Assembly: GCF_048403405.1 (NCBI RefSeq)
Contig: NZ_CP183129.1
Source of the DNA: Escherichia coli
GTDB taxonomy: Bacteria > Pseudomonadota > Gammaproteobacteria > Enterobacterales > Enterobacteriaceae
Direction: 5' to 3' (one strand)
Length of the DNA stretch: 64,000 bases
Both the position numbers and the translations under genes were made by a program. Positions 2,095 to 59,589 of the stretch are shown here, in pieces (the first letter of the stretch is position 1; every line of letters begins with the position of its first letter). Below the pieces are notes generated by a model that saw only the letters and a program-made list of their open reading frames with translations, was not told the origin of the DNA and ran no database searches.

Positions 2095-3990
<1,896 letters not shown>

Positions 3991-4053: not shown

Positions 4054-6195
4054 TCAAAATTCCATTTTCACCGTGAATTGCACTTCACGCGGATCGCCAA
4101 TCTGATTCCCCAGATTATTTGTGGCGATGGAAGAGGTGTAATACGTTTTATCAAACAGGTTTTTGACGTTTAATTGCAGTGTGACCGGATACTGCAATTT
4201 CATTTTGTATGCGGCGAAGGCATCGGCAACGAAATAGCCTGGCAGATAATAGTCAGCCCCATTGGTTGCCGAACGACGGCTTACGCCATGTCCACCACCG
4301 CCAAACGTCAGTGTGTTATTGCCTGGCATGTTATGAATGTCATAGGTCAGGAATAGCGAACCGGTATGACGAGGAACATTCGGCAATGGTTTCCCTGCAT
4401 AATCAGGATCTTCCAGAACCTTAGCATCGGTATAGCCGTAGCTGGCAATGATATTAATGTTTTCAGTTAATGCTCCCGCAAGGTCGACTTCTACCCCTCT
4501 TGAACGAACGCGGCCTGCCGTTTTGGCGATGGTTTCATCACCAATACTTTCGGTATACAACACGTTACGTTTATGGATATCAAACAGCGCAATATCTGCG
4601 GTGATACCATCGAACAGCTCGAATTTTGCCCCGACTTCGTAAGCATTAGATGATTCCGGTGGAAGATCTCCGATGTAGCTGGCAATTGACGATTGCGGCA
4701 TAAATGTTTGCGAATAATTAGCAAATAAGGATACCGATGGCGTCAGTTTGTAGACTAACCCCAGTTTGGGCGTCCATTGTTCATCGCGGCTGTCAGTATT
4801 GACATTAAAAGGACGGCCTTTACCCGCATACTGCGTGTAATACTGATAGCGGATCCCGGCGACGGCAATCCAGTTATCGGTCAGATAGAGCGCGTCCTGT
4901 GCATAAGCTGAGTAGCTCTCCTGTTTGATCGTCTGATCGCTGTCCGACGCCGAGACAGTTGTGCATTTGCTGGTATTGCCGTAAACAGGGTTGTAGATAT
5001 TGAAATCTTTAGCGTTTTTACAGCGAATCATATCTGTGCGCAGAAGATCATAATATTCATATGACACCCCACCCAGAATCTCATTATAGAACCCAGCAAT
5101 ATCAACATTCCCTTGCAGATCCGCACGAGTAGCATGCATACGCTGGGTAGATCCCTGAGTTGCATCAACACGCCGTGTCAGCGTTCCTGTCGTTGCATCA
5201 TACGCGGTAACACGAGCCTGATTATCGCCGTATTTATCCTGGCTGTAGCTGTAATCAAAGCGCGCTGTCCACTGGCTATTGAGATGATATTCTGCGTTGA
5301 GTTGCGCCAGATCGGACTGACCATCTGTAATATTAAACGGTTCGTCAAAACGTATTTTTCGATCAACGTTTACGGGCTGTTTCGTCGTAAGGTCGAAAAT
5401 CGTTCCACGATCGAACGGAGTTTTATAGTCCCGATGGGAATAGAGCATGGTTACTGTTGCATTATCACCAAACCAGGTGAGTGACGGGGCAATAAATGTA
5501 CTGCGCTCTTTACCGAAGTTTCGCCAGTAATCTTCATCCTGCACTTCCCCCGTCAGGCGGTATGCCAGCTGAGTGCCTTCAATGGGACCTGTGATATCAA
5601 GTTGCCCAGTGCCTCCGCCAAAACTGGAGGACGTGGCTGAGACAGAACCATGGAATGTTTTTTCCGGGCGCTTGGTCACGACGTTAATCAATCCACCAGG
5701 ATCGAGAATGCCATACAGCGTGGAGGCCGGACCTTTTAGCACTTCCACACGTTCTGTGGCGGCGTTGAAACTGCGAGGAAGTACAGTTCGCAGGCCGTTG
5801 GTCATGATGGAGCCATCCCGGTTAGCACCAAACCCACGACGTACAAAGGCGTCCTGAGTTCCGCCTAATGTATTGGTCTGTACCACGTTACTGACGTTAT
5901 AAAGCGCTTCATCCAGCGTCGTTGCATTCTGATTTTCCAGAACCTGATCGCTAACCGTATTGACCACCTGCGGGATATCCAGCATCGGCATATCGGTTAA
6001 TGTCGCCATGGAGGTGCTCAGAGGTTGATAACCATCGGTCGCCTCAGTTGCGGTATTTGCATCCGCTGTAACAGTGATTGTTTCGCCATCTTTGGTCGTT
6101 GCAGTGTCGGTTGCATGAATCATTGGTGCTGCAAAGAGCAGTGAAAAGAGCGCCCGACCTTTGATTCCTGAGAATGAAGGTGTGAACTTAGCCAT
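4054..6195 (-). CDS. TonB-dependent siderophore outer-membrane receptor
   Basis: 713 aa; signal peptide; TonB-box-like ETITVTA; plug and beta-barrel features; C-terminal aromatic residue (ends ...KMEF); not part of the K-12 parE-ygiN junction as I recall it. Confidence 0.9.
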   Translation of the reverse strand: MAKFTPSFSGIKGRALFSLLFAAPMIHATDTATTKDGETITVTADANTATEATDGYQPLSTSMATLTDMPMLDIPQVVNTVSDQVLENQNATTLDEALYNVSNVVQTNTLGGTQDAFVRRGFGANRDGSIMTNGLRTVLPRSFNAATERVEVLKGPASTLYGILDPGGLINVVTKRPEKTFHGSVSATSSSFGGGTGQLDITGPIEGTQLAYRLTGEVQDEDYWRNFGKERSTFIAPSLTWFGDNATVTMLYSHRDYKTPFDRGTIFDLTTKQPVNVDRKIRFDEPFNITDGQSDLAQLNAEYHLNSQWTARFDYSYSQDKYGDNQARVTAYDATTGTLTRRVDATQGSTQRMHATRADLQGNVDIAGFYNEILGGVSYEYYDLLRTDMIRCKNAKDFNIYNPVYGNTSKCTTVSASDSDQTIKQESYSAYAQDALYLTDNWIAVAGIRYQYYTQYAGKGRPFNVNTDSRDEQWTPKLGLVYKLTPSVSLFANYSQTFMPQSSIASYIGDLPPESSNAYEVGAKFELFDGITADIALFDIHKRNVLYTESIGDETIAKTAGRVRSRGVEVDLAGALTENINIIASYGYTDAKVLEDPDYAGKPLPNVPRHTGSLFLTYDIHNMPGNNTLTFGGGGHGVSRRSATNGADYYLPGYFVADAFAAYKMKLQYPVTLQLNVKNLFDKTYYTSSIATNNLGNQIGDPREVQFTVKMEF

Positions 6196-6295
6196 TTAGT
6201 CTGTTATCCCAAAAACTCACGGATTGTCGTGAGTGAAAATTGTTTCTTGTTGCTCACTAAGCACTATCCGTTTGTTATTTCACCATCGGATATGT

Positions 6296-6314
6296 AATTG
6301 AGAATCATTCAACC
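6296..6314. promoter_or_regulatory. Possible Fur box in the divergent receptor/ABC-transporter promoter region
   Basis: gtaattgagaatcattcaa matches about 12 of 19 positions of the Fur consensus GATAATGATAATCATTATC, with a conserved AATCATT core; weak on its own. Confidence 0.3.
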
Positions 6315-6568
6315 ATGCGGTGATGTAGTAGTAAATGAGAAATAACAAAAAATTGCTACATGTGTTTTTATGAGAGGTTAATGCAATTCAATTGATGGTA
6401 ATTTATTAATATTTAATGGTTTTATTTTTATCTTTAAAAATATTTCACCTGTTATTTACCTTGTTTTTGTATGGATTTTAACTTCTTGACTACTACATTT
6501 TGTGGCGTCAAACTCTCAAAGGAGAATGAGTTTTATTTTTGTTTGTCTTTGATTAAGTTGGCGTACAC

Positions 6569-7378
6569 GTGGCACATAACGCAAAAGGGCAGGGGCTGAT
6601 CCTCGACAATGTTTCTGCCGGGTATCACAAGAAAATCATTGTTGATGGTGTTTCTTTCTCCGTTCCCACAGAAAAAATGACCGTTCTGGTTGGGGCAAAC
6701 GGCTGTGGAAAGTCGACGTTGCTCAGCACCATTGCACGTATCTTGCAACCTATGGGCGGCTCGATATTGCTGGATGGTAAAGCGATTCACGAGCAACCAA
6801 CGAAAGCGTTATCCCGTAGACTTGGGATCTTGCCGCAGTCGCCATTATTGCCGGAGGGCTTAACCGTTTATGAACTGGTGTCGCGTGGGCGTTTTCCCTG
6901 GCAGAATTTCATTCGTCAATGGAGCGACGCCGACGAGCAGGCGGTAGAAGAGGCCCTGAAATTAACCGGTACGCAGGAGTTTGCACATTTACCTGTTGAA
7001 AAACTTTCTGGTGGGCAGCGCCAGCGTTGCTGGATTGCGATGGTGTTGGCGCAAAAGACGCCTTATATCCTGCTGGATGAACCCACAACCTGGCTTGATT
7101 TACGTTATCAGGTTGAAATTCTTGAGTTATTACATGATTTAACGCGTCATCACGGGCGTACAGTCGTCGTGGTGTTGCATGATCTGAATTTTGCCGTCAA
7201 TTATGGCGATACGTTGATATTTTTACGCCAGGGGAAAGTGGTGCGTGTGTTGAATGAGGGGGAGCATTGCACGCCTGAGCTGGTAAAAGCTGTCTTTGAC
7301 GTTGATGTTCACGCATCAATAAATCCTCTGACGGGAAAGCCGTTCTTCATGCCGTTTCGTGGTGTAGAAAAAGTATGA
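6569..7378 (+). CDS. ABC transporter ATP-binding protein (iron-siderophore importer type)
   Basis: Walker A GANGCGKST, signature LSGGQRQR, Walker B ILLDEPT; GTG start. Confidence 0.9.
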   Translation: MAHNAKGQGLILDNVSAGYHKKIIVDGVSFSVPTEKMTVLVGANGCGKSTLLSTIARILQPMGGSILLDGKAIHEQPTKALSRRLGILPQSPLLPEGLTVYELVSRGRFPWQNFIRQWSDADEQAVEEALKLTGTQEFAHLPVEKLSGGQRQRCWIAMVLAQKTPYILLDEPTTWLDLRYQVEILELLHDLTRHHGRTVVVVLHDLNFAVNYGDTLIFLRQGKVVRVLNEGEHCTPELVKAVFDVDVHASINPLTGKPFFMPFRGVEKV

Positions 7379-8358
7379 TGCGCACAGGGCTGGTTACTGT
7401 AATTTTCCTCGCCTTACTGCTGGTGGGATGCGTGGTATATCCAGGGATTGGTGCCCGATTTATTGCACCACAAACGGTGTTGCAGGCATTTCTTCATTTT
7501 GAACCGCAAAACTTCGATCACAACGTAATTGTAAGACTCCGTTTGCCGCGTTTAGCGGCAGCATTGCTTACCGGTGCTTCTCTTGGAGTTGCTGGTGCTT
7601 TGTTGCAGGCTGTCATTCGTAACCCATTGGGGGAGCCACATATTTTAGGCTTAAATGCCGGAGCCGCTCTTGCTGTCGTTGCTGCCACTGCGCTTGGGCT
7701 GGCCTTTCCGGTTGGACGCCCACTGCTGGCATCTACGGGCGGCGCGTTATTGTTCCTGTTGATATTGCTGCTTTCCTCCGCAGGGCGTTCAGGGTTAACG
7801 CCAATGAAAGTTACTTTATGCGGCGTGGCGCTATCGGCGTTCGTGTCCTCAATAACGGCTGCAATCCTGATTCTTGACGAACAAACACTGCTGGCGATGC
7901 GGACATGGCTAGCAGGTGATTTAGCGGGGCAGGATTGGGTGACGCTGGGTACGTCCGCCTGGTTTTCTCTGGGGGGGGTTGTGTTAGCCATTTACCTTGC
8001 GCCCTCTCTTAACATGTTGGCACTGGGTGATCGCATGGCGCAGGGGCTGGGCGTCTCGGTACTCCGCACGCGAACATTCACTCTGCTTGCGATCGCGTTG
8101 CTCTGTGGCGCAGCCGTATCGATTGCTGGCCCCATTGGTTTTGTCGGTCTGCTAGTACCGCAGATTGTCAGGCGTCTGGTATCAGCGGATCTGCGCGTTC
8201 TGCTCCCTCTTTCAGCTTGTGTCGGCGCGCTTTTGTTATTACTGGCAGATATTATTGCCCGGACGCTTTTCACGCCCCATGAGTTAGCGACCGGTGTCAT
8301 GACGGCGTTAGTTGGTGCGCCTGTTTTTGTCATTATGGCGACGAGGATGTTCAAATGA
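7375..8358 (+). CDS. ABC transporter permease, FecCD/BtuC family
   Basis: 327 aa polytopic membrane protein; 4-bp overlap with the upstream ATPase gene. Confidence 0.9.
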   Translation: MMRTGLVTVIFLALLLVGCVVYPGIGARFIAPQTVLQAFLHFEPQNFDHNVIVRLRLPRLAAALLTGASLGVAGALLQAVIRNPLGEPHILGLNAGAALAVVAATALGLAFPVGRPLLASTGGALLFLLILLLSSAGRSGLTPMKVTLCGVALSAFVSSITAAILILDEQTLLAMRTWLAGDLAGQDWVTLGTSAWFSLGGVVLAIYLAPSLNMLALGDRMAQGLGVSVLRTRTFTLLAIALLCGAAVSIAGPIGFVGLLVPQIVRRLVSADLRVLLPLSACVGALLLLLADIIARTLFTPHELATGVMTALVGAPVFVIMATRMFK

Positions 8359-9404
8359 GTCGGATAATGAACGTCGGGCTACGTCCACTACGTGTTGGTA
8401 AGTTTTCGACACTGGTACGCCCTAAAAATCTGGTGTTGCTTGGTGGGCTGTTTCTGTTTGCGGTTGGAATACTGATATTCGGTCTGATGCATGGTTCTTT
8501 TTCTGTCCCGGCATCGGAAGTAGGACGAGCGTTGTTTGCTCCAGAAAACGTAAGCACAGACGCACGTTATATTGTGCAGGATATTCGCTTGCCGAGAGTC
8601 ATCATGGCATTGCTATGCGGAGCCATGTTAGGTATGGCGGGGGCCGCGATGCAATCCATTGCGCGTAACGGCCTTGCCGATCCTGGTTTAATCGGCGTCA
8701 AAGAAGGATGTAGCGTGGCGGTGCTGTGGCTGATTTTCCAGTTTCCAATGCTGGGAATGTTCTGGCGTCCAGTGGCTGGTCTTGCTGGTGGCTTGTTGGT
8801 GGCTTTAATCGTGATTTTTTGTGCACGCGATATTTCCCGCCCGCGATTTGTTCTGATTGGTATTGGTGTTTCCTGGTTTTTCGCCGCCGGTATCGGTGTA
8901 TTTATGACCACTGCAGATGTTCGAGATGTACAAACTGCATTGATGTGGTTATCGGGAAGCCTGCATGCAGCTAACTGGATGTTAGTCGGTATTTCAGCCT
9001 GTTGGATGTTGCCAGCCGCTCTTTTATTGCTGTTCACCGCCAGGACGGCGGATATCGCTCTGCTTGGTCATCAGGTTGCAACCGGGTTAGGGGTGAATAG
9101 TTCTCGTCTGGCGTTGTTACGTGTCGCCGCACCAATAATCCTGACAGCCGTCTGCGTTTCGTGTGTTGGTAACATCGGTTTTGTCGGATTGATAGCACCC
9201 CATATATCACGTTTTATTCTACGTGGCGGGCAGACGACATTACTGCTGGGGAGCGCCGTATCGGGGGCGTTGTTAGTCATCCTGGCGGATAGCATTGGTC
9301 GTTTGGCTTTTTTGCCTTTGCAACTGCCTGCCGGAATCATTATTTCATTGATTGGTGGACCATTCTTTTTGCTACTGCTCTGGCAGCGCAGGAACAGTTT
9401 TTAA
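8355..9404 (+). CDS. ABC transporter permease, FecCD/BtuC family (second subunit)
   Basis: 349 aa polytopic membrane protein, paralogous to the preceding permease; 4-bp overlap. Confidence 0.9.
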   Translation: MSRIMNVGLRPLRVGKFSTLVRPKNLVLLGGLFLFAVGILIFGLMHGSFSVPASEVGRALFAPENVSTDARYIVQDIRLPRVIMALLCGAMLGMAGAAMQSIARNGLADPGLIGVKEGCSVAVLWLIFQFPMLGMFWRPVAGLAGGLLVALIVIFCARDISRPRFVLIGIGVSWFFAAGIGVFMTTADVRDVQTALMWLSGSLHAANWMLVGISACWMLPAALLLLFTARTADIALLGHQVATGLGVNSSRLALLRVAAPIILTAVCVSCVGNIGFVGLIAPHISRFILRGGQTTLLLGSAVSGALLVILADSIGRLAFLPLQLPAGIIISLIGGPFFLLLLWQRRNSF

Positions 9405-9414
9405 TGGGAGTTAT

Positions 9415-10362
9415 ATGCGTTTATTTTTTTCTCTGCTGATACTGTTGTCATTCTTTGCCCGCGCGACAGAACCTGTTCAGGTCTTTACTGATGATTTAGG
9501 GCGCAAAGTCACTGTTCCTGCTCATCCAAAGAGAATTGTCTCTTTACACGATCTTGATATCACTATTCCTCTGATTGAGCTCGGTGTACCTCCTGTCGCC
9601 AGCCACGGACGAACCCGGCCTGACGGTAGCCATTTCATTCGATCAGGCGCGTTATTGACAGGTGTCGACTTTGATAATTCATCGATCGCTTTTATTGGCA
9701 CCGCTGATATTGATATTGAAGCGATTGTGGCGGCAAAGCCTGACCTGATCATCACAGAACCGACCCGTAATACGCCCATTGAACAACTGGAAAAAATTGC
9801 GCCCACGGTGAGCATTGATCATCTCAAAGGAGGCGCGCCAGAAATCTACCGCAAGCTGGCAGAACTTACAGGAACGCAGTCGCAGCTGGCGATACTTGAA
9901 CGCCGCTATCAGGCACAAATCAATGCGCTGAAGGCGACGCTGGACAGCCAAAAAATAACGGTATCGGTGATTCAGGCAAATCAGGGAAAAATTAATGTGA
10001 TGCATAGCTATCATTCGCTGGGGCGGGTATTACGCGATGCTGGTTTTCGCTTTCCGCCGCTGATTGAGAGCATTCCTGAAGGTGGGCGAATGGATGTGAG
10101 CGCAGAGCGTTTACCTGAACTGGATGCCGATTTTGTTTTTGCAACCTGGCGCGGTGACACCGGTGGTAAACCTCAGGATGAGCTGGCAGCAATGGAAAAA
10201 GTCATGCCGGGATGGTGTCAGTTTCTGACGGCCTGTCGTTCCGGGCGCTATGTGCTGATTTCTCGTGAAGAGGCGATTTCTAACTCCTTTGCATCTCTGG
10301 GGCTGATGGCTGCGCAGATACAATCACAAATTGCGGGACGACCTCTACCGGAGGCTAAATGA
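9415..10362 (+). CDS. Periplasmic siderophore-binding protein of the ABC importer
   Basis: Start moved to the in-frame ATG at 9415, which has a GGGAG ribosome-binding site and begins a typical signal peptide (MRLFFSLLILLSFFARA); the tracked ORF begins upstream at 9352. Confidence 0.85.
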   Translation: MRLFFSLLILLSFFARATEPVQVFTDDLGRKVTVPAHPKRIVSLHDLDITIPLIELGVPPVASHGRTRPDGSHFIRSGALLTGVDFDNSSIAFIGTADIDIEAIVAAKPDLIITEPTRNTPIEQLEKIAPTVSIDHLKGGAPEIYRKLAELTGTQSQLAILERRYQAQINALKATLDSQKITVSVIQANQGKINVMHSYHSLGRVLRDAGFRFPPLIESIPEGGRMDVSAERLPELDADFVFATWRGDTGGKPQDELAAMEKVMPGWCQFLTACRSGRYVLISREEAISNSFASLGLMAAQIQSQIAGRPLPEAK

Positions 10363-11246
10363 TCCAGAAAGACAAAACGCGGGTTGATATTTATGGTGAG
10401 CGTTTTCGCACTCGCGCGAGTCAGTTAACGCCTGGGTTAAGAACTGTCGCAAGCTACATTAATGAGCATCGTGAAGTGGTACTCGAGCAAACGGCGATGG
10501 AAATTGCGGCCACGTTGAACACTTCCGATGCCACAGTTATCAGGGCTATACAGGCTCTGGGGTTTGCCGGGCTGCGTGATCTGAAACGCACACTGGAACA
10601 GTGGCTTGGTCCAGCCCTTAGTTCCAGCGAAAAGATGTCTACGACGGTGAGTAACTTGACGAGCGATGTTAACACCGCAATCGACTTTGTTCTTGAAGGG
10701 CATTTGTATACTTGTAATGTCCTGTCAGAGCCTGAAAACCGCCACGCGCTTGCGCAAGCTGTAGCGTTGTTGGTGCAGGCACGGCAAGTCGCTATTTTTG
10801 GCATTGGCGCTTCGGGTATCCTGGCGGACTATACCGCACGACTATTCAACCGCATAGGTTTGCCTGCCACGGCACTAAACCGTACGGGTATTGGCCTTGC
10901 CGAGCAACTGATCGCGCTTCAACGTGGCGATGTTCTGATCATGATGGCGCAAAAATCTGCGCACCGGGAAGGGCTGACAACGCTTCGTGAGGCGAGGCGG
11001 CTGGGGATCCCTGTTATTTTGCTGACAAACGCGCTGGATTCACGTTTTAGCAAAGACGCCAGTATCGTGATTCATGTTCCGCGCGGGGATGAAAGGGGGA
11101 AAACGCCACTACATGGTACGGTATTGTTGTGCCTGGAAATGATTGTTTGGTCGGTGGCTTCCGCGATGCCGCAGCGTGCGGTTAAAACCATTAAGCGAAT
11201 TAACGATTTCCATCGGGGTTTGAAAACGGGAAGAAAGAATGGCTAA
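10359..11246 (+). CDS. RpiR/MurR-family transcriptional regulator (helix-turn-helix plus SIS domain)
   Basis: 295 aa; N-terminal HTH and C-terminal sugar-isomerase-like domain pattern; start overlaps the binding-protein stop (ATGA). Confidence 0.8.
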   Translation: MIQKDKTRVDIYGERFRTRASQLTPGLRTVASYINEHREVVLEQTAMEIAATLNTSDATVIRAIQALGFAGLRDLKRTLEQWLGPALSSSEKMSTTVSNLTSDVNTAIDFVLEGHLYTCNVLSEPENRHALAQAVALLVQARQVAIFGIGASGILADYTARLFNRIGLPATALNRTGIGLAEQLIALQRGDVLIMMAQKSAHREGLTTLREARRLGIPVILLTNALDSRFSKDASIVIHVPRGDERGKTPLHGTVLLCLEMIVWSVASAMPQRAVKTIKRINDFHRGLKTGRKNG

Positions 11247-12466: not shown

Positions 12467-12946
12467 ATGTCAAATATCATATACTTATCAATTAAAGGAA
12501 AAACACAAGGTTTGATCTCTGAGGGCTGTGGTTCGTATGCATCTATTGGTAATAAATATCAAATAAATCATGTGGATGAAATTTTTGTTTTACAGTTCGA
12601 CCATTCTTTAAGTCGAGAATATAATGTAGTGCATCATCCCATAAAATTTTACAAGCCAATAGATAAATCCTCTCCTTTATTAAATGCTGCTCTTTCTGAA
12701 AATGAAGAGTTATCAGCTGTATTTAATTTTTATAGAATTAATTCTGGCGGTTGTATTGAAAGGTTTTACACAATTGAATTGCAAGGGGCATATTTATCGA
12801 ATATTCTGACTTGTTATCCACACTCAATTACACATGCGGGTAATCAACCGGAAGAGGTCATTGTTCTTAATTATAAAAATATAACATGGAAGCACCATAT
12901 CGCGAGTACGGAATCATATAGCTGTTGGGAAGAAAGGATTTTTTAA
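12467..12946 (+). CDS. hcp: Type VI secretion Hcp-family protein (orphan hcp)
   Basis: 159 aa; Hcp-like blocks IYLSIKGKTQGLISEGC, HHPIKFYKPIDKSSPLL and NYKNITWKHH; GGAGA ribosome-binding site 6 nt upstream; AT-rich gene. Confidence 0.8.
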   Translation: MSNIIYLSIKGKTQGLISEGCGSYASIGNKYQINHVDEIFVLQFDHSLSREYNVVHHPIKFYKPIDKSSPLLNAALSENEELSAVFNFYRINSGGCIERFYTIELQGAYLSNILTCYPHSITHAGNQPEEVIVLNYKNITWKHHIASTESYSCWEERIF

Positions 12947-12948
12947 AT

Positions 12949-13659
12949 ATGAAAAGCGATCTCACTATAAAAAATAGATATTGTACAATTCCACAAACGA
13001 AGTTCCGTAAATGGGATGAAATGGACGTTTTACTCTGGAAGTTAGGAAAAAATGATTCGCGTCGCCGTTCAGGAGTATATTATTTAAATGCTTATAAAGA
13101 TGCATATGTACAATATAATAGGGACAAAATAATTAAACATGCATATGCCGCAGGGATTCGTCCAGAGTTATTGGGCGGCGTGGCCTGGATTGAGTCAGGA
13201 GGTATGCCTGAAAATTATAAGTTTCAGATATATGAAACAAAAAGAATGATCGGATCGTTAGATATGCCTGAAAATAAAACATCATTTGGCTCAATGGGTA
13301 TACAAATACGAACCGCAGCGATTACTCTAGGCCTTGACCCTTCAGAATTAACTACCAGAAATCAGTTAGAGTTAGCGACATGCCTGATGGAAGATGATTT
13401 TACCTTTAAAATTGCTGCTACTCATTTAAGAGATCTTGCCCTTTTTGATTATCCCTCTTCGGCAACACTGTATATGACGAATGAGCAGTATATTATGGCT
13501 GGTATTAGATATAATCGTGGTGTTGAACGAGATTTGGGTTTTTTTATTTATTTAATTAATAATTTGCCTGCGCGTGATACAGATGATTATAAATTCATCT
13601 CTTATGGTATGAGGTTGTTAGAGATTAGAGAACATATCAAAAAATTGATCAATGAGTAA
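12949..13659 (+). CDS. Hypothetical protein with lysozyme/lytic-transglycosylase-like motifs; candidate Hcp-associated cell-wall-targeting effector
   Basis: Start set at the ATG at 12949 (GAAAGGA ribosome-binding site) 2 nt after the hcp stop; motifs WIESGG, FGSMGIQI and IRYNRG resemble the soluble-lytic-transglycosylase E-S / GLMQ / AYNAG pattern; function is inferred. Confidence 0.5.
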   Translation: MKSDLTIKNRYCTIPQTKFRKWDEMDVLLWKLGKNDSRRRSGVYYLNAYKDAYVQYNRDKIIKHAYAAGIRPELLGGVAWIESGGMPENYKFQIYETKRMIGSLDMPENKTSFGSMGIQIRTAAITLGLDPSELTTRNQLELATCLMEDDFTFKIAATHLRDLALFDYPSSATLYMTNEQYIMAGIRYNRGVERDLGFFIYLINNLPARDTDDYKFISYGMRLLEIREHIKKLINE

Positions 13660-15393: not shown

Positions 15394-16049
15394 TTCTCAC
15401 CTAATGTGTAGCCAATACCATGAACGGTACGAATAAAATCACTGCCGAGTTTGCGTCGCAGATGATGCACATGCACTTCAACGGCATTACTGGTGACCTC
15501 TTCGTCCCAGGTATACAGTTTCTCTTCAATCAGTTTGCGCGGCAGTACCCGACCAGCGTTACGCATCAGTAATTCCAGCAGGGCAAATTCTTTTGGTTTC
15601 AGTGTTAAGGGTTCGCCAGCCAGCGTGGCGATACGTTTGCCGGGGTCGAGCATGACGTTACCGTGGCGCAGTTCGTTGCTGGCCTGGCCGTTGGTTCGGC
15701 GCATCAGAGCTTCCAGCCTGGCGGCGACTTCTATCAACGCAAAAGGTTTACACAGATAATCGTCAGCTCCCAGACGCAGCCCCTCTACACGTTCCGCTAA
15801 CGCATCGCGCGCGGTCAGGATCAGTACCGGCTCACGCTGACCTTTTTCTCGCCATTCGCGCAAAATATCGCGACCATCCATGCCTGGTAAGGTTAAATCC
15901 AGGATCACCGCATCATAAGGCGCACTATATAGCGCCTCTTTTCCCTGACGACCTTGTGTAAACCAGTCGACGCTAAAACCCATTTTACTAAGGCCCGTTT
16001 TGATGCCGTCGCCAATCAGCATGTCATCTTCTATCAGTAAAATTCGCAT
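15390..16049 (-). CDS. qseB: Response regulator QseB (OmpR family)
   Basis: 219 aa; receiver domain (DLTLPGMDG) and winged-helix C-terminus. Confidence 0.95.
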
Positions 16050-16200
16050 TTTTTCATCCCTGCGATAACCGTATTTGCTGCCAGTAAACCGTGTTGTAAC
16101 GCGCTCTGTACAGCATTAAATTTTATTTTTTTCCCTTAAGAAGTTGTTAAGGACTATCTTGTTAAATGCTCGGAAACAGACATTAAAGGGAGTAATAAAC

Positions 16201-16593
16201 ATGAAAAAATTCGCAGCAGTAATCGCAGTAATGGCCCTGTGCAGCGCACCGGTGATGGCAGCAGAGCAGGGCGGTTTTTCTGGCCCATCGGCAACGCAAA
16301 GTCAGGCCGGAGGATTCCAGGGGCCGAACGGCAGCGTAACGACCGTAGAAAGCGCAAAATCCCTGCGTGACGACACCTGGGTAACCCTGCGCGGCAATAT
16401 CGTTGAACGCATCTCTGACGATCTCTACGTGTTCAAAGATGCCAGCGGTACTATCAATGTTGATATCGACCACAAACGCTGGAACGGCGTGACGGTGACG
16501 CCGAAAGATACGGTTGAGATTCAGGGTGAAGTCGATAAAGACTGGAATTCTGTTGAAATTGACGTCAAACAGATCCGCAAAGTAAATCCGTAA
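16201..16593 (+). CDS. ygiW: Periplasmic OB-fold protein YgiW
   Basis: Start set at the ATG at 16201 with an AGGGAG ribosome-binding site, giving 130 aa with a signal peptide (MKKFAAVIAVMALCSAPVMA); the tracked ORF has an unsupported N-terminal extension. Confidence 0.9.
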   Translation: MKKFAAVIAVMALCSAPVMAAEQGGFSGPSATQSQAGGFQGPNGSVTTVESAKSLRDDTWVTLRGNIVERISDDLYVFKDASGTINVDIDHKRWNGVTVTPKDTVEIQGEVDKDWNSVEIDVKQIRKVNP

Positions 16594-16603
16594 TTGTTAC
16601 CGC

Positions 16604-16624
16604 TCCCGGGACGCATTCCCGGGA
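16604..16624 (+). terminator. Hairpin downstream of ygiW
   Basis: Palindromic stem tcccggga/tcccggga with a 5-nt loop; weak T tract. Confidence 0.4.
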
Positions 16625-16645
16625 ATAATTTCGCAGGGAGGCAAA

Positions 16646-17128
16646 ATGACAAACCTGACACTGGATGTAAATATTATCGATTTCCCATCAATCCCTGTGG
16701 CGATGTTGCCGCACCGCTGTAGCCCTGAGTTGCTCAACTACAGCGTGGCGAAATTTATCATGTGGCGTAAAGAGACGGGGCTTTCTCCTGTTAACCAAAG
16801 CCAGACTTTTGGCGTCGCCTGGGACGACCCTGCCACCACCGCACCGGAAGCGTTTCGCTTTGATATCTGCGGCAGCGTTAGCGAACCGATCCCCGATAAT
16901 CGTTATGGTGTGAGTAATGGTGAACTTACCGGTGGACGTTATGCTGTGGCCCGCCATGTTGGCGAGCTGGACGATATTTCACACACGATATGGGGCATCA
17001 TTCGCCACTGGCTACCTGCAAGCGGCGAGAAAATGCGTAAAGCACCGATTCTGTTTCACTACACCAATCTTGCCGAAGGAGTGACAGAGCAGCGACTGGA
17101 AACGGATGTTTATGTACCGTTAGCGTGA
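16646..17128 (+). CDS. ygiV: GyrI-like effector-binding domain protein YgiV
   Basis: 160 aa; synteny next to ygiW/qseBC. Confidence 0.88.
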   Translation: MTNLTLDVNIIDFPSIPVAMLPHRCSPELLNYSVAKFIMWRKETGLSPVNQSQTFGVAWDDPATTAPEAFRFDICGSVSEPIPDNRYGVSNGELTGGRYAVARHVGELDDISHTIWGIIRHWLPASGEKMRKAPILFHYTNLAEGVTEQRLETDVYVPLA

Positions 17129-17236
17129 TGGAGAATCTTTACCGGAGTGTGAGCCACATCACTCGCGATAAGTTTGAGCGAACAATGCCACAGGCGTATT
17201 GTTGTCGGGCTTATAATTTCTCCGGTAAGGAATACC

Positions 17237-18844
17237 ATGTATACGCGAAATTTATTATGGCTGGTCAGCCTGGTAAGTGCGGCTCCTCTCTACGCTGCTG
17301 ACGTTCCCGCCAACACACCGCTCGCCCCGCAACAAGTCTTTCGTTACAACAATCATAGCGACCCAGGTACGCTCGACCCGCAAAAGGTAGAGGAGAATAC
17401 TGCCGCGCAGATTGTGCTGGATCTGTTTGAAGGTCTGGTATGGATGGACGGTGAAGGCCAGGTGCAGCCCGCTCAGGCTGAACGCTGGGAGATACTGGAC
17501 GGCGGCAAGCGCTATATTTTCCATCTGCGTAGCGGTTTGCAGTGGTCAGACGGTCAGCCTCTGACGGCAGAGGATTTTGTCCTCGGCTGGCAGCGCGCGG
17601 TTGACCCGAAAACGGCAAGCCCTTTTGCTGGCTATCTGGCACAGGCGCACATTAACAATGCCGCGGCTATTGTTGCGGGTAAAGCAGATGTTACATCGCT
17701 GGGTGTCAAAGCGATGGATGATCGTACTCTTGAAGTTACGCTTGAGCAGCCGGTTCCTTGGTTCACGACGATGCTCGCCTGGCCGACGCTGTTCCCGGTT
17801 CCCCATCATGTCATCGCGAAATATGGCGATAGCTGGAGTAAGCCTGCGCATATGGTTTACAACGGTGCCTTTGTGCTTGAACAGTGGGTAGTTAACGAAA
17901 AGATTACTGCACGCAAAAATCCAAAGTACCGCGATGCGCAACATACAGTATTGCAACAGGTTGAGTATCTGGCGCTGGATAATTCGGTCACCGGCTATAA
18001 CCGCTATCGCGCGGGAGAGGTCGATCTCACCTGGGTTCCGGCGCAGCAAATTCCCACCATTGAAAAATCACTGCCTGGCGAGCTACGAATTATCCCGCGT
18101 CTGAACAGCGAATATTACAACTTTAACCTTGAGAAACCGCCATTTAACGATGTGCGGGTGCGTCGGGCGCTATATCTTACGGTTGATCGACAGCTTATTG
18201 CGCAAAAGGTACTGGGGTTGAGAACGCCCGCAACCACGCTGACGCCGCCAGAGGTAAAAGGCTTTAGCGCGACGACGTTCGATGAACTGCAAAAGCCAAT
18301 GAGTGAGCGTGTCGCGATGGCAAAAGCCTTGCTGAAACAGGCGGGATACGACGCCTCTCATCCGCTACGCTTTGAGCTGTTCTACAACAAGTACGATCTG
18401 CATGAAAAAACCGCGATAGCGTTGTCTTCCGAATGGAAAAAATGGCTGGGTGCACAGGTGACGCTGCGCACAATGGAGTGGAAAACTTATCTTGATGCCC
18501 GACGAGCCGGTGATTTCATGCTGTCGCGGCAGTCGTGGGATGCGACGTATAATGATGCTTCCAGCTTCCTGAACACGCTCAAAAGCGATAGTGAAGAAAA
18601 CGTCGGTCACTGGAAAAATGCGCAGTATGACGCCTTACTAAACCAGGCCACGCAGATCACTGATGCGACAAAGCGTAATGCGTTGTATCAGCAGGCAGAA
18701 GTGATCATCAACCAACAGGCACCGCTGATTCCTATCTACTATCAGCCGTTAATCAAACTGCTTAAACCCTACGTTGGCGGTTTTCCGCTGCATAATCCCC
18801 AGGATTATGTCTACAGCAAAGAGTTGTATATCAAGGCACATTGA
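17237..18844 (+). CDS. ygiS: Periplasmic solute-binding protein YgiS (family 5, oligopeptide-type)
   Basis: Start set at the internal ATG at 17237, giving 535 aa with a signal peptide (MYTRNLLWLVSLVSAAPLYA). Confidence 0.9.
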   Translation: MYTRNLLWLVSLVSAAPLYAADVPANTPLAPQQVFRYNNHSDPGTLDPQKVEENTAAQIVLDLFEGLVWMDGEGQVQPAQAERWEILDGGKRYIFHLRSGLQWSDGQPLTAEDFVLGWQRAVDPKTASPFAGYLAQAHINNAAAIVAGKADVTSLGVKAMDDRTLEVTLEQPVPWFTTMLAWPTLFPVPHHVIAKYGDSWSKPAHMVYNGAFVLEQWVVNEKITARKNPKYRDAQHTVLQQVEYLALDNSVTGYNRYRAGEVDLTWVPAQQIPTIEKSLPGELRIIPRLNSEYYNFNLEKPPFNDVRVRRALYLTVDRQLIAQKVLGLRTPATTLTPPEVKGFSATTFDELQKPMSERVAMAKALLKQAGYDASHPLRFELFYNKYDLHEKTAIALSSEWKKWLGAQVTLRTMEWKTYLDARRAGDFMLSRQSWDATYNDASSFLNTLKSDSEENVGHWKNAQYDALLNQATQITDATKRNALYQQAEVIINQQAPLIPIYYQPLIKLLKPYVGGFPLHNPQDYVYSKELYIKAH

Positions 18845-18981
18845 TGCCTTTATCGCCGTCGGAGCACGTCCGGCGGCGCTATTCACGCTGATCTCCTGTG
18901 ACTCGACGCGGCAGATAATGTAGTATCTCCGGCAATATTGCCCCTTTGAAGGCTGGCGAATAAGTTGAGGAATCAGAATTA

Positions 18982-21240
18982 ATGAGCGATATGGCAGAGC
19001 GCCTTGCGCTACATGAATTTACGGAAAACGCCTACTTAAACTACTCCATGTACGTGATCATGGACCGTGCGTTGCCGTTTATTGGTGATGGTCTGAAACC
19101 TGTTCAGCGCCGCATTGTGTATGCGATGTCTGAGCTGGGCCTGAATGCCAGCGCCAAATTTAAAAAATCGGCCCGTACCGTCGGTGACGTACTGGGTAAA
19201 TACCATCCGCACGGCGATATCGCCTGTTATGAAGCGATGGTCCTGATGGCGCAGCCGTTCTCTTACCGTTATCCGCTGGTTGATGGTCAGGGGAACTGGG
19301 GCACGCCGGACGATCCGAAATCGTTCGCAGCAATGCGTTACACCGAATCCCGGTTGTCGAAATATTCCGAGCTGCTATTGAGCGAGCTGGGGCAGGGGAC
19401 GGCTGACTGGGTGCCAAACTTCGACGGCACTTTGCAGGAGCCGAAAATGCTACCTGCCCGTCTGCCAAACATTTTGCTTAACGGCACCACCGGTATTGCC
19501 GTCGGCATGGCGACCGATATTCCACCGCATAACCTGCGTGAAGTGGCTCAGGCGGCAATCGCATTAATCGACCAGCCGAAAACCACGCTCGACCAGCTGC
19601 TGGATATCGTGCAGGGGCCGGATTATCCGACTGAAGCGGAAATTATCACTTCGCGCGCCGAGATCCGTAAAATCTACGAGAACGGACGTGGTTCAGTGCG
19701 TATGCGCGCGGTTTGGAAGAAAGAAGATGGCGCGGTGGTTATCAGCGCATTGCCGCATCAGGTTTCAGGTGCGCGCGTACTGGAGCAAATTGCTGCGCAA
19801 ATGCGCAACAAAAAGCTGCCGATGGTTGACGATCTGCGCGATGAATCTGACCACGAGAACCCGACCCGTCTGGTGATTGTGCCGCGTTCCAACCGCGTGG
19901 ATATGGATCAGGTGATGAACCACCTCTTCGCAACCACCGATCTGGAAAAGAGCTATCGTATTAACCTCAATATGATCGGTCTGGATGGTCGTCCGGCGGT
20001 GAAAAACCTGCTGGAAATCCTCTCCGAATGGCTGGTGTTCCGCCGCGATACCGTGCGCCGCCGACTGAACTATCGTCTGGAGAAAGTCCTCAAGCGCCTG
20101 CATATCCTCGAAGGTTTGCTGGTGGCGTTTCTCAATATCGACGAAGTGATTGAGATCATTCGTAATGAAGATGAACCGAAACCGGCGCTGATGTCGCGGT
20201 TTGGCCTTACGGAAACCCAGGCGGAAGCGATCCTCGAACTGAAACTGCGTCATCTTGCCAAACTGGAAGAGATGAAGATTCGCGGTGAGCAGAGTGAGCT
20301 GGAAAAAGAGCGCGACCAGTTGCAGGGCATTTTGGCTTCCGAGCGTAAAATGAATAACCTGCTGAAGAAAGAACTGCAGGCAGACGCGCAAGCCTACGGT
20401 GACGAACGTCGTTCGCCGTTGCAGGAACGCGAAGAAGCGAAAGCGATGAGCGAGCACGACATGCTGCCGTCTGAACCTGTCACCATTGTGCTGTCGCAGA
20501 TGGGCTGGGTACGCAGCGCTAAAGGCCATGATATCGACGCGCCGGGCCTGAATTATAAAGCGGGTGATAGCTTCAAAGCGGCGGTGAAAGGTAAGAGCAA
20601 CCAACCGGTAGTTTTTGTTGATTCCACCGGTCGTAGCTATGCCATCGACCCGATTACGCTGCCGTCGGCGCGTGGTCAGGGCGAACCGCTCACCGGCAAA
20701 TTAACGTTGCCGCCTGGGGCGACCGTTGACCATATGCTGATGGAAAGCGACGATCAGAAACTGCTGATGGCTTCCGATGCGGGTTACGGTTTCGTCTGCA
20801 CCTTTAACGATCTGGTAGCGCGTAACCGTGCAGGTAAGGCTTTGATCACCTTACCGGAAAATGCCCATGTTATGCCGCCGGTGGTGATTGAAGATGCTTC
20901 CGATATGCTGCTGGCAATCACTCAGGCAGGCCGTATGTTGATGTTCCCGGTAAGCGATCTGCCGCAGTTGTCGAAGGGCAAAGGCAATAAGATTATCAAC
21001 ATTCCGTCGGCAGAAGCCGCGCGTGGCGAGGATGGTCTGGCGCAACTGTACGTTCTGCCGCCGCAAAGCACGCTGACCATTCATGTTGGGAAACGCAAAA
21101 TTAAACTGCGTCCGGAAGAGCTACAGAAAGTCACTGGCGAACGTGGACGCCGCGGTACGTTGATGCGCGGTTTGCAGCGTATCGATCGTGTTGAGATCGA
21201 CTCTCCTCGCCGTGCCAGCAGCGGTGATAGCGAAGAGTAA
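18982..21240 (+). CDS. parC: DNA topoisomerase IV subunit A
   Basis: 752 aa; GyrA-like N-terminus including the active-site region (AAMRYTE). Confidence 0.97.
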
Positions 21241-55041: not shown

Positions 55042-56112
55042 ATGAAGCTGGTTGAACACTACATCATGCGTGGTACGCGCCGTCTGGTGCTGATTATCGT
55101 CGGTTTTCTGATCTTTATTTTCGCCAGCTACTCCGCACAGCGTTATCTGACCGAAGCGGCAAATGGGACATTAGCTCTTGATGTTGTGCTGGATATCGTT
55201 TTCTACAAAGTGCTGATTGCACTGGAGATGTTGTTACCTGTTGGACTGTATGTGTCAGTTGGCGTGACGCTAGGGCAGATGTATACCGATTCGGAAATCA
55301 CAGCTATCTCTGCGGCGGGGGGCAGTCCGGGACGCTTGTACAAAGCCGTTCTTTATCTGGCGATACCGCTAAGTATTTTTGTCACCCTTCTGTCGATGTA
55401 TGGTCGTCCGTGGGCTTATGCGCAGATTTATCAACTGGAGCAACAGTCACAGTCGGAGCTGGATGTTCGCCAGTTGCGGGCAAAGAAATTTAACACTAAC
55501 GATAACGGACGAATGATCCTTTCGCAGACGGTTGATCAGGATAATAATCGCCTGACTGACGCGCTGATTTATACTTCTACTGCCAATCGAACCCGCATTT
55601 TCCGCGCCCGTTCGGTTGATGTGGTTGACCCATCACCTGAGAAACCGACCGTTATGTTGCATAACGGGACCGCCTATCTTCTCGATCATCAGGGGCGTGA
55701 CGACAACGAACAGATCTACCGTAATCTGCAATTACATCTGAATCCGCTGGATCAAAGCCCTAACGTCAAACGCAAAGCAAAATCGGTCACGGAGCTGGCG
55801 CGCTCCGTCTTTCCAGCCGATCATGCCGAACTGCAATGGCGACAAAGCCGTGGCCTGACAGCATTGTTGATGGCGCTGCTGGCCATTTCATTAAGTCGGG
55901 TAAAACCGCGGCAAGGGCGATTTTCAACATTATTGCCACTGACGTTGCTGTTTATTGCCATTTTTTATGGCGGCGACGTCTGCCGTACGCTGGTGGCTAA
56001 CGGCGCGATTCCCCTCATTCCTGGTTTGTGGTTAGTACCCGGACTCATGCTAATGGGCCTGCTGATGCTGGTCGCACGCGACTTCTCTTTGCTGCAGAAA
56101 TTTTCCCGATGA
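55042..56112 (+). CDS. LptF/LptG-family (YjgP/YjgQ) permease, first paralogue
   Basis: 356 aa; N-terminal pattern similar to LptF (YxxRxxxxxxxxxxxxF, TESEIT-like TDSEIT); polytopic. Confidence 0.8.
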   Translation: MKLVEHYIMRGTRRLVLIIVGFLIFIFASYSAQRYLTEAANGTLALDVVLDIVFYKVLIALEMLLPVGLYVSVGVTLGQMYTDSEITAISAAGGSPGRLYKAVLYLAIPLSIFVTLLSMYGRPWAYAQIYQLEQQSQSELDVRQLRAKKFNTNDNGRMILSQTVDQDNNRLTDALIYTSTANRTRIFRARSVDVVDPSPEKPTVMLHNGTAYLLDHQGRDDNEQIYRNLQLHLNPLDQSPNVKRKAKSVTELARSVFPADHAELQWRQSRGLTALLMALLAISLSRVKPRQGRFSTLLPLTLLFIAIFYGGDVCRTLVANGAIPLIPGLWLVPGLMLMGLLMLVARDFSLLQKFSR

Positions 56113-57188
56113 ATGTTTTCAGTCGCTATTTAATCCGTCATCTCTTTCTCGGTTTTGCCGCCGCCGCAGGGCTATTGCTGCCGCTTTTTACCACCTTCAA
56201 CCTGATTAACGAACTGGATGATGTCAGCCCGGGCGGTTATCGCTGGACTCAGGCGGTGCTGGTGGTGCTGATGACCTTACCGCGTACACTGGTCGAACTT
56301 TCGCCGTTTATCGCCTTATTGGGAGGGATTGTTGGCCTGGGGCAGTTATCGAAAAACAGTGAGCTTACCGCCATTCGCAGCACTGGGTTTTCTATCTTCC
56401 GTATTGCACTGGTGGCGCTGGTTGCCGGGATATTGTGGACTGTTTCGTTAGGCGCGATAGATGAGTGGGTGGCGTCGCCATTGCAGCAACAGGCGCTGCA
56501 AATCAAATCGACTGCCACCGCGTTGGGGGAGGACGATGACATTACCGGCAATATGCTTTGGGCCAGGCGCGGTAATGAATTTGTGACGGTGAAATCGCTG
56601 AACGAGCAGGGCCAGCCTGTGGGCGTGGAGATATTTCATTATCGCGACGATCTCTCGCTCGAATCCTACATTTTTGCACGCAGTGCCTCCATTGAAGACG
56701 ACAAAACGTGGATCCTGCATGGTGTGAATCATAAAAAATGGTTGAATGGCAAAGAAACGCTGGAAACATCAGATAATCTTGCCTGGCAATCGGCCTTCAC
56801 CAGTATGAATCTTGAAGAGTTATCGATGCCGGGAAATACTTTTTCTGTCCGTCAACTTAATCATTACATCCATTATTTGCAGGAAACCGGGCAACCCAGC
56901 AGCGAATACCGCCTTGCACTGTGGGAAAAACTGGGACAACCCATCCTGACCCTGGCGATGATTTTGCTGGCTGTGCCGTTTACCTTTAGTGCCCCGCGTT
57001 CGCCTGGGATGGGTAGCCGTCTCGCTGTAGGCGTCATCGTGGGCTTACTCACCTGGATCAGCTATCAAATCATGGTCAATCTGGGGTTGCTATTTGCGTT
57101 GAGCGCACCTGTTACCGCGCTCGGTTTACCGGTAGCGTTTGTGATGATGGCGTTGAGCCTGGTGTATTGGTATGACAGACAACATTAA
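56109..57188 (+). CDS. LptF/LptG-family (YjgP/YjgQ) permease, second paralogue
   Basis: Start set at the ATG at 56109 overlapping the upstream stop (ATGA); about 359 aa; N-terminus MNVFSRYLIRH resembles LptG. Confidence 0.8.
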   Translation: MNVFSRYLIRHLFLGFAAAAGLLLPLFTTFNLINELDDVSPGGYRWTQAVLVVLMTLPRTLVELSPFIALLGGIVGLGQLSKNSELTAIRSTGFSIFRIALVALVAGILWTVSLGAIDEWVASPLQQQALQIKSTATALGEDDDITGNMLWARRGNEFVTVKSLNEQGQPVGVEIFHYRDDLSLESYIFARSASIEDDKTWILHGVNHKKWLNGKETLETSDNLAWQSAFTSMNLEELSMPGNTFSVRQLNHYIHYLQETGQPSSEYRLALWEKLGQPILTLAMILLAVPFTFSAPRSPGMGSRLAVGVIVGLLTWISYQIMVNLGLLFALSAPVTALGLPVAFVMMALSLVYWYDRQH

Positions 57189-57222
57189 ACCCGCCGTGGC
57201 GCAGCGCCACAGCGGGCTCACA

Positions 57223-58395
57223 TTACTGCTTCAGAGTAGCAAATGCCTGAATGATGGCATCGATTTGCTCACGACTGTGGGCAGCGTTTACGCTACAGCG
57301 CAGCAGCGTGATGCCTGCAGGCGCGGCAGGTGGCAGGATAAGATTCACATAAACGCCCAGCGAAATAAGCTCGCGCCAGATGCGTAAACCTTCCTCTTTC
57401 GAACCGATTATTACTGGCACTACCGGGCTAATATGTGAACTTAACTCATAACCCAGTTTTTGCAGACCGTCATACAGATGGTTGGCATTATCCATCAGCT
57501 TTTGCCGCAACTCTGGTTGTGTAGCAATGGTTCTTAACGACGAGCGCACGGTCGCAATGCAGGACGGAGAAGGAGAGGCGGTAAAAATATACGGGCGGCT
57601 GCCGTAGCGCAGCACTTCCATCGCTTCCGAACCGACAGCAAAACCGCCAATCGAGGCCAGACTTTTACTGAAAGTACCAACGATAATATCCACATCATCT
57701 TCAACGCCAACGGCTTCAGCCAGTCCGCGCCCCGTTGCGCCTAACACGCCAAACGAATGCGCTTCATCGACAATCAAATAACCACCGAGACGACGTTTGA
57801 TATCAACAATTTCCGCCAGCGGCGCAACGTCACCGAGCATACTGTAGATGCCTTCAACGATGATAATCGCCTCTTTTGCCCGTTCACCGAGGCGAACCAT
57901 GCGCCGTTCCAGATCTTTAGCATCGTTATGGCGGAAACGAATAATTTCCGCGCCACCGAGAGAACAGGCGTCATAAATACTGGCGTGGCTGTCGGCATCC
58001 AGTAACACCACGGCGTTATGGTCGGCAAGTGCGCTGATGACGCCTAAATTAGCGGTATAACCGGTTGAAAAAACGATAGCGGTAGGGCGATTAAAAAACT
58101 CGGCGATCTCTTTCTCTAACGCCAGATGCGGCGCATAACTGCCGTTTGCCATACGAGAACCGGTGGTGCCGGTGCCTTGGGCCGCTAACGCTGCCTGACC
58201 TTCGGCGATGGCATCATGATTGAAGGTTAATCCGAGATAATTATTGGTCCCGGCCAGAATCACTTTTTTATTGCCGATCCGGCCTTCGGTGGCGGAATAC
58301 ACTCCATCAATACAGGTACCAAACGGCGTTAACCCGTTGTCACTAAATTGCAGTCGCTCGCCAGCAAGACGCGCATATTTATCGTATAGCCCCAT
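57223..58395 (-). CDS. Alpha-oxoamine synthase, serine-palmitoyltransferase-like (PLP-dependent)
   Basis: 390 aa; PLP-lysine motif GTFSKSLASIGGF closely resembles the bacterial serine palmitoyltransferase GTFSKS signature; class I/II aminotransferase fold pattern. Confidence 0.85.
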   Translation of the reverse strand: MGLYDKYARLAGERLQFSDNGLTPFGTCIDGVYSATEGRIGNKKVILAGTNNYLGLTFNHDAIAEGQAALAAQGTGTTGSRMANGSYAPHLALEKEIAEFFNRPTAIVFSTGYTANLGVISALADHNAVVLLDADSHASIYDACSLGGAEIIRFRHNDAKDLERRMVRLGERAKEAIIIVEGIYSMLGDVAPLAEIVDIKRRLGGYLIVDEAHSFGVLGATGRGLAEAVGVEDDVDIIVGTFSKSLASIGGFAVGSEAMEVLRYGSRPYIFTASPSPSCIATVRSSLRTIATQPELRQKLMDNANHLYDGLQKLGYELSSHISPVVPVIIGSKEEGLRIWRELISLGVYVNLILPPAAPAGITLLRCSVNAAHSREQIDAIIQAFATLKQ

Positions 58396-58643
58396 TATTT
58401 ATTCTCCAGCCATGGAAGTAGTGTTTCCATTAATTGCGCAGGGGTTTTGACATCCAGCAGAATATTAATAGGAATGGAAATATCGAATCTGTCTTCCAGC
58501 ATCATTAAGAGATCCATCACTTTGATCGACTCCAGGCCAAGATCGTTGACGAGATCGCTGTCGGGCTTAATTTCCACACCGTTTTCGACCAAATCCTGTA
58601 AACAGGAAAGGATGTAATCCATTACTATTTCACGATTTACCAT
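58395..58643 (-). CDS. Acyl carrier protein
   Basis: 82 aa; phosphopantetheine-attachment motif DLGLESIKVMDL; stop overlaps the synthase start (TAATG). Confidence 0.85.
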   Translation of the reverse strand: MVNREIVMDYILSCLQDLVENGVEIKPDSDLVNDLGLESIKVMDLLMMLEDRFDISIPINILLDVKTPAQLMETLLPWLENK

Positions 58644-58674
58644 AGAAACGTTAACACACCTTTAAACAAGACAA

Positions 58675-59589
58675 TCAAAATAGCCCGTTGCGTAATGCGT
58701 GTTCCAGGCTAATCCCGGGAAACCAATTAATATCTTCAGAAATACGGTTATTACTTGCTGACCAGTCGGCGTGGGTTAATTCACGGATTTTCGAGCGGGT
58801 CAGCATAGGTTCTTTACCCGCCAGACGGCTCAACGCGGTACTGATATCCGCAAGGCAGGTGAGTACCGACAGAGGAATACCAACCATTCGAACGGAACCA
58901 CAACGGGCGTCGGCGGCAAGCTGTCTTACGCGTTGCCAGTCATAGCCGCCGGCGACGCCATCGCATAATTCATAGGTTTGCGTCTGTACAGTTTCGGCGC
59001 TTAACCACTGCCCCACGGCTTGCGCGAAATCGGTGACGTGCAGGAAAGAGAGCTGTGTATCTGGCGCACCAAGTCGTGGCAGCAGGCCGCGCAGCATCCA
59101 GTCAAACAGCGGTTTTAACTCTTTATCGCCGGGACCATACACGGCTGTCGGGCGAAAAATGCCCAGCGTAATTTCGTCAGCCATTGCGGTCAGTCGTTGT
59201 TCGGCGACGTGTTTGGAATTTGCGTACCAGGAGAGTTCGGGATGGCGCGCCGCCAGCGAAGAGATAAACAGAAAACGTTGGCAAAAGCCGCTCTCTTTTG
59301 CCGCTTGCATCAGTCGCAGGCTGCCGTCAACGTTACAGCGGGTAAAAATCTCTTCTTTGTGCCCGCGCACTTGCCCGGCGCAATGGACCACCGCGCTGGC
59401 TCCGGCAACCAGTTCGCTAAGTGAATGAGTATCTTCCAGAGAACCGCGCACCCAGGTGAGATTATCATTGACGTGAGCGCGGGCAGTACGCGTCAATGCG
59501 CGAACGTGAAAGCCGCGGGCGAGCAGGTTATCGATAATATATTTACCGATAAACCCGGTAGCGCCCGTCACCGCGACAGTTTGATTCAT
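58675..59589 (-). CDS. NAD(P)-dependent epimerase/dehydratase-family (extended SDR) reductase
   Basis: 304 aa; Rossmann motif GATGFIG and catalytic YANSK (YxxxK). Confidence 0.85.
   Translation of the reverse strand: MNQTVAVTGATGFIGKYIIDNLLARGFHVRALTRTARAHVNDNLTWVRGSLEDTHSLSELVAGASAVVHCAGQVRGHKEEIFTRCNVDGSLRLMQAAKESGFCQRFLFISSLAARHPELSWYANSKHVAEQRLTAMADEITLGIFRPTAVYGPGDKELKPLFDWMLRGLLPRLGAPDTQLSFLHVTDFAQAVGQWLSAETVQTQTYELCDGVAGGYDWQRVRQLAADARCGSVRMVGIPLSVLTCLADISTALSRLAGKEPMLTRSKIRELTHADWSASNNRISEDINWFPGISLEHALRNGLF

Follow-up and report, generated by a model that had tools for sequence, protein, structure and literature searches.

In E. coli K-12, the toxin-antitoxin genes mqsR and mqsA stand between ygiV and ygiS, whereas in the 64-kb stretch of E. 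coli DNA analysed here (the window) only 108 bp separate ygiV from ygiS. The arrangement raises the question of whether the pair is missing from this strain and, if so, whether it was lost or never arrived. MqsR is a toxin of about 98 aa, a RelE-like mRNA interferase, and the gene directly downstream of it encodes MqsA, an antitoxin of about 131 aa that consists of a zinc-binding N-terminal domain and a helix-turn-helix domain. The operators of the mqsRA promoter are palindromes of the ACCT-N-AGGT type, present in two copies in K-12. The analysis described below favours, with a probability of roughly 0.9, the reading that the spacer is an ancestral, never-occupied site, and that some other lineages of E. 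coli gained mqsRA by one insertion.

The gene neighbourhood in the window is qseC-qseB / ygiW-ygiV-ygiS-parC (coordinates in Table 1). Over its first 25 kb, the window matches the chromosome of E. coli U1 (NZ_CP041359.1) at 100% identity, and the RefSeq record of U1 lists the same two open reading frames as ygiV and ygiS, with zero features annotated in between. The start of ygiS is the ATG at 17237; an in-frame TTG upstream, at 17174, is not annotated as a start. The sequence-only reading had placed the end of ygiV at 17128 and the start of ygiS at 17237, with a gap of about 108 bp that holds no small ORFs of the mqsR/mqsA type. The positions proved exact in the ORF list, the raw sequence and the U1 annotation, and tblastn and blastn searches of the gap with K-12 mqsRA were negative. 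The spacer is, moreover, too short to encode MqsA, and ACCTTTTAGGT-type operator palindromes are absent from it (17129-17236).

Table 1. Features of the ygiV-ygiS locus, in window coordinates.
Feature	Position	Strand	Basis and remarks
ygiV CDS, 160 aa, GyrI-like/AraC-family regulator	16646..17128	+	ORF list; RefSeq WP_000183494.1 (identical U1 record)
ygiV stop codon, TGA	17126-17128	+	Raw sequence
ygiV-ygiS spacer, 108 bp, without toxin-antitoxin genes	17129..17236	+	Sequence, alignments, negative mqsRA tblastn/blastn
Unoccupied insertion point, GAGAA (GGGAA in O26:H11)	17131..17135		Three-way and spacer alignments; K-12 counterpart is the 927-bp cassette, positions 2232-3158 of locus sequence L001
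Inverted repeat, left arm, TCTTTACCGGAG, 12 nt	17136..17147	+	Repeat search, fold; starts precisely where the K-12 insertion ends on its right-hand side
TATAAT, perfect hexamer, candidate -10 of a ygiS promoter	17212..17217	+	Sequence; CTTATAA columns invariant in the spacer alignment
Inverted repeat, right arm, CTCCGGTAAGGA	17220..17231	+	Repeat search, fold; contains the ygiS Shine-Dalgarno sequence
ygiS CDS, 535 aa, periplasmic ABC-transporter substrate-binding protein, intact	17237..18844	+	ORF list; RefSeq WP_001327858.1

The sequence-only reading had placed mqsRA between ygiS and ygiV in K-12, and the annotation of K-12 W3110 confirmed this order: the genes run ygiW-ygiV-mqsR-mqsA-ygiS-parC, and ygiV and ygiS are 1030 bp apart, compared with 108 bp in the window, so that the short spacer is not shared by K-12. 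Alignment of the ygiV-ygiS interval with that of K-12 revealed one clean indel, of 927 bp in K-12 and 5 bp in the window, which was mapped in a three-way alignment of the window, K-12 and O26:H11, and then in an alignment of the spacers alone. On the ygiV side, collinearity extends through the stop codon (TGA, 17126-17128) and two more bases before the indel begins; on the ygiS side, 101 bp (17136-17236), starting with TCTTTACCGGAG, are common to the window and K-12. The flanks of the K-12 locus (ygiV-mqsR-mqsA-ygiS, b3023-b3020), namely qseCB, ygiW and ygiV, then ygiS and parC, have the same order and orientation as in the window, and the locus sequences of strains that carry the cassette are approximately 98% identical to it. 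The difference is the 927-bp mqsRA cassette, which in K-12 takes the place of GAGAA. This segment comprises the mqsR promoter with two ACCTTTTAGGT palindromes, mqsR, mqsA, and a stem-loop with a T-run. Its G+C content is 41%, while that of ygiV is 53%, of ygiS 52%, and of the window 51%. Neither a target-site duplication nor a terminal repeat was found at the cassette ends by alignment and repeat search, and the alignment revealed no remnant of the cassette in the empty site of the window.

Both states are common among the 5426 complete E. coli genomes surveyed. The cassette was found in 2299 of them (42%), invariably as a chromosomal copy with 99% identity or more. An 82-bp query that spans the empty junction, run by word-11 blastn, detected an uninterrupted junction in 3124 genomes (58%), with U1 matching at 100%; in 2298 genomes the query was split into two places, which complements the contiguous count. 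The empty junction is, therefore, the majority state of E. coli. A megablast census of the junction, which gave 666 genomes, was discarded as an undercount, as its 28-nt words are disrupted by SNPs. Strains with the empty site include CFT073, UPEC 536, and O157:H7, and carriers include K-12, B, HS, ATCC 8739, NCTC86, and 042. When the condition of ygiS is also considered, three alleles can be distinguished: the cassette (42%), an empty site with ygiS (about 33%), and an empty site with ygiS replaced (25%). The window belongs to the second, which accounts for about 1770 genomes, a figure that other lesions of ygiS would alter somewhat. Now and then the locus has been disrupted secondarily, as in the carrier strain HUM3355, where an IS1A has entered at the cassette and the annotation gives mqsR as two pieces, and in strain MB20, where an IS30 lies within the ygiV-ygiS region.

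The direction of the change was addressed by a scan of YgiV relatives, one genome per species, which returned five Escherichia loci besides typical E. coli; E. fergusonii and the E. coli type strain are not among the loci returned. In E. albertii (L008), E. whittamii (L007), and SCPM-O-B-8794 (L005), ygiV is followed after 110-113 bp by a full-length ygiS. The last of these is a species representative labelled E. coli, the YgiV of which is 94% identical. In Escherichia sp. MOD1-EC7003 (L004) and E1V33 (L006), ygiV is followed by remnants of ygiS. None of the five (0/5) has mqsR or mqsA at the locus, and the outgroup spacers can be aligned with that of the window over the whole length, junction included. 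The empty site is most likely ancestral, and the K-12 arrangement derived, as E. albertii, E. whittamii, and SCPM-O-B-8794 have ygiV beside ygiS with the same conserved spacer. Since the empty site is both the majority state in E. coli and the state of the other Escherichia, the lineage of the window most likely never acquired mqsRA, rather than having lost it. The foreign base composition of the cassette, its near-zero diversity, and the clean empty site agree with an ancestral empty state, and the parsimonious reading is that mqsRA most likely entered once, by a single insertion within E. coli.

The same comparisons bear on secondary loss, by which an ancestor of the lineage would have possessed mqsRA and a precise deletion would have removed it. 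A deletion of this kind is very unlikely to explain a site that holds no scraps of the cassette and that aligns base for base with the spacers of E. albertii and E. whittamii, in a genus in which mqsRA is absent from all five other representatives. Repeated loss could in principle produce the patchy distribution of the cassette (42%), and the neighbouring ygiS is demonstrably prone to deletion; however, the cassette has a foreign base composition and nearly no diversity, all 2299 carriers reaching 99% identity or more, versus 97.3-100% identity to the window for the locus sequences. Moreover, toxin-antitoxin pairs are addiction modules, in which the stability of the toxin causes loss of the pair to be counter-selected, and this also counts against secondary loss.

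Slightly less probable still is a copy of mqsRA, or a diverged pair of the MqsR/MqsA family, elsewhere in the genome of the strain. The idea derives some appeal from the plasmids of other Proteobacteria, on which MqsR-family toxins are found (best protein identity 67%; 30 of the 73 plasmids are predicted to be conjugative), and from the scope of the protein-level search, which covered 64 kb of the genome. Over all 64 kb, the best tblastn match of K-12 MqsR had an E-value of 0.63 over 30 aa, that of K-12 MqsA had an E-value of 2.9, and blastn of the cassette against the whole window returned chance matches of 12-29 nt only. The genome-wide search employed a chimeric query, composed of the 1501-bp locus of the window and the reverse complement of the cassette; with the cassette placed on the opposite strand, matches to the locus and to the cassette are not joined into one place. 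U1 ranked first; by both megablast and word-11 blastn its chromosome matched at one place, the flanks, and nowhere to the cassette. The 60 genomes nearest at the locus (at least 98.5% identity) likewise have one place each, with the cassette absent (megablast, chimeric query), and the absence thus applies to the lineage and not just to the strain. Among 20,395 E. coli records searched by word-11 blastn, matches to mqsRA coding DNA were confined to chromosomes, with identities of 99% or higher, and none fell on the E. coli plasmids in the collection; diverged copies were not found at that sensitivity. One 4.9-Mb record filed as a plasmid, NZ_CP141089.1, has a K-12-type mqsR; it is evidently a mislabelled chromosome and, hence, provides no evidence of plasmid-borne mqsRA in E. 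coli.

The claims of the sequence-only reading about the strain, its lineage and the species have, in this light, held. As the observation is one of presence or absence, chance plays no part in it. Lack of MqsRA in the strain is supported at the locus and, at the DNA level, on the U1 chromosome; its lack in the lineage is borne out by 60 of the 60 nearest genomes, and the accessory status of the pair by its presence in 2299 of 5426 genomes. At the DNA level, which here means approximately 65-70% identity and above, with the protein-level search covering the 64-kb window, both the strain and its lineage lack mqsRA. An artefact of assembly or of the window, whereby a collapse or mis-join would have shortened the spacer, is refuted by the contiguous junction in 3124 independent complete genomes and three other Escherichia representatives.

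The preferred reading, an ancestral site left unoccupied in this lineage and filled elsewhere, suggests the following history. In the lineages that now carry the pair, the 927-bp segment would have been inserted 2 bp past the stop codon of ygiV, with replacement of 5 bp. Low in G+C, the segment is self-contained and carries an operator and promoter of its own, both genes, and a terminator. We infer a single origin, most likely through one event of horizontal transfer and illegitimate recombination, after which vertical inheritance, together with homologous recombination in the conserved flanks, would have spread the cassette. U1 and its relatives would simply have kept the original layout, in which ygiS directly follows ygiV and is preceded by a conserved upstream region of its own. 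E. coli 042 carries the cassette and other non-A lineages do not, a distribution that does not define one simple clade, so that spread by recombination, or some or repeated losses, are needed to account for 042. The plasmid-borne members of the MqsR family indicate that mobile relatives exist. A donor with a near-identical cassette was not found in the plasmid collection (the best relative being the one at 67% protein identity), MqsR had no match in the phage collection, and the junctions bear no signature of any known insertion mechanism.

The spacer itself is predicted to form an unusually stable RNA structure. The arms of the inverted repeat are 92% complementary and 72 nt apart, and the Shine-Dalgarno sequence of ygiS (AAGGA, 17227-17231) is located 5 nt before the ATG. 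The predicted RNA fold of 17126-17245 has a free energy of -42.6 kcal/mol, compared with a shuffle mean of -27.3 (z = -4.5), and its closing helix covers the Shine-Dalgarno sequence. One possibility, which we consider unlikely, is that the spacer is a cis-acting RNA element that would regulate ygiS by means of a 12-bp helix (17136-17147 with 17220-17231) sequestering the ribosome-binding site. On transcripts that read through from ygiW-ygiV, the helix would hide this site; ygiS would be translated only from transcripts of its own promoter (TATAAT, 17212-17217), in which the left arm is missing. The cassette would then have landed at the 5′ edge of the element with its own terminator, leaving the arrangement undisturbed. 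Six Escherichia sequences contained 0 compensatory pairs, a few wobble-preserving changes, and a few broken pairs, so that covariation does not support the fold. An Rfam search of 16000-19000 returned only an archaeal snoRNA model at the level of chance (15.2 bits, gathering threshold 40, E = 0.66). Alternatively, the spacer may be a conserved promoter region, the symmetry of which is fortuitous. For K-12, a putative promoter has been noted ahead of ygiS (PMC5120126, Table 1). The consensus scan for promoters and terminators yielded no more than shuffled sequences do, and nothing convincing in the spacer; it did not call the TATAAT because the corresponding -35 is poor.

The third allele is exemplified by O26:H11. 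It resembles the window in being without mqsRA, and the two share both the empty junction and the spacer. It differs in ygiS, which is intact in the window, whereas in the O26:H11-type allele only roughly the first 8 codons and the very end of the gene are left and the rest is replaced. The replacement DNA of O26:H11 str. 11368 (L003 6862-7096) is unrelated, about 235 bp long, and single-copy per genome, and this allele was found in 1354 of the 5426 complete genomes. The proposal that the foreign DNA is a remnant of a group II intron was dropped, as an Rfam scan found nothing. The ygiS remnants of MOD1-EC7003 (L004 5553-5922) and E1V33 (L006 3713-4140) have internal deletions with different left breakpoints, and both resume at residue 452 of YgiS. 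It seems that ygiS decays repeatedly across the genus Escherichia.

Other features were observed in the window, and at least 80% of positions 1-25000 were covered in only 1866 of the 5426 genomes. A cluster of approximately 7 kb between parE and ygiN (4054-11246) encodes a TonB-dependent siderophore receptor, a four-gene iron-siderophore ABC transporter, and a MurR/RpiR regulator; O26:H11 has ygiN directly after parE, which identifies the cluster as an accessory island. Between mdaB and ygiZ (12467-13659) there are an orphan Hcp-family type VI secretion gene and a hypothetical gene of 236 aa, and the corresponding interval of O26:H11 is gene-free and about 320 bp long. A further cluster, described from annotation alone, is located between yghO and yghS (about 50717-61307). 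Its annotated products are a fatty acyl-AMP ligase, an epimerase/dehydratase, an acyl carrier protein, a serine palmitoyltransferase, LptF/LptG-like permeases, and a lipopolysaccharide biosynthesis protein.

Of the biofilm, bile, and stress phenotypes reported for MqsRA in K-12, several are disputed, as is the proposed link between MqsR and ygiS mRNA in deoxycholate tolerance (PMC6918082). In the strain of the window ygiS is present and MqsR is not, and the proposed link, therefore, cannot operate there. More broadly, work on the K-12 MqsRA system cannot be extended to the 58% of sequenced E. coli that most likely never had the system, including CFT073, 536, and O157:H7. The variability of the locus has been encountered by several approaches: homologues of mqsRA were not found in the B2 strain NRG857c (PMC7232551), PCR surveys detected mqsRA in only part of the clinical isolates (PMC11059956), and a pan-genome association study had mqsA, mqsR, and ygiS among its variable genes (PMC11390585). 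The empty mqsRA site of the window is thus an already known polymorphism, correctly read; the map of both site states at base resolution, together with the counts of the three alleles, serves as a tidy reference and not as a discovery.

The locus conforms to what has been described for toxin-antitoxin systems of E. coli in general. Among distant reference strains of E. coli, no type II system is conserved, and these systems were assigned to the accessory genome (PMC7167474). Chromosomal type II systems were found integrated in the intergenic stretches that separate core genes (PMC7167474; PMC5120126), and the ygiV / mqsR-mqsA / ygiS layout is tabulated explicitly (PMC5120126). The endoribonuclease systems of K-12 are described there as horizontally transferred, with citation of Fiedoruk 2015 and Ramisetty & Santhosh 2016. 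The window shares with the K-12 systems described in these reports, mqsRA included, the pattern of a small operon between core genes that is present in some strains and cleanly missing in others. Measured against that pattern, as the two reports and their citations of the 2015 and 2016 papers present it, the window differs in nothing substantive and represents one more empty allele.
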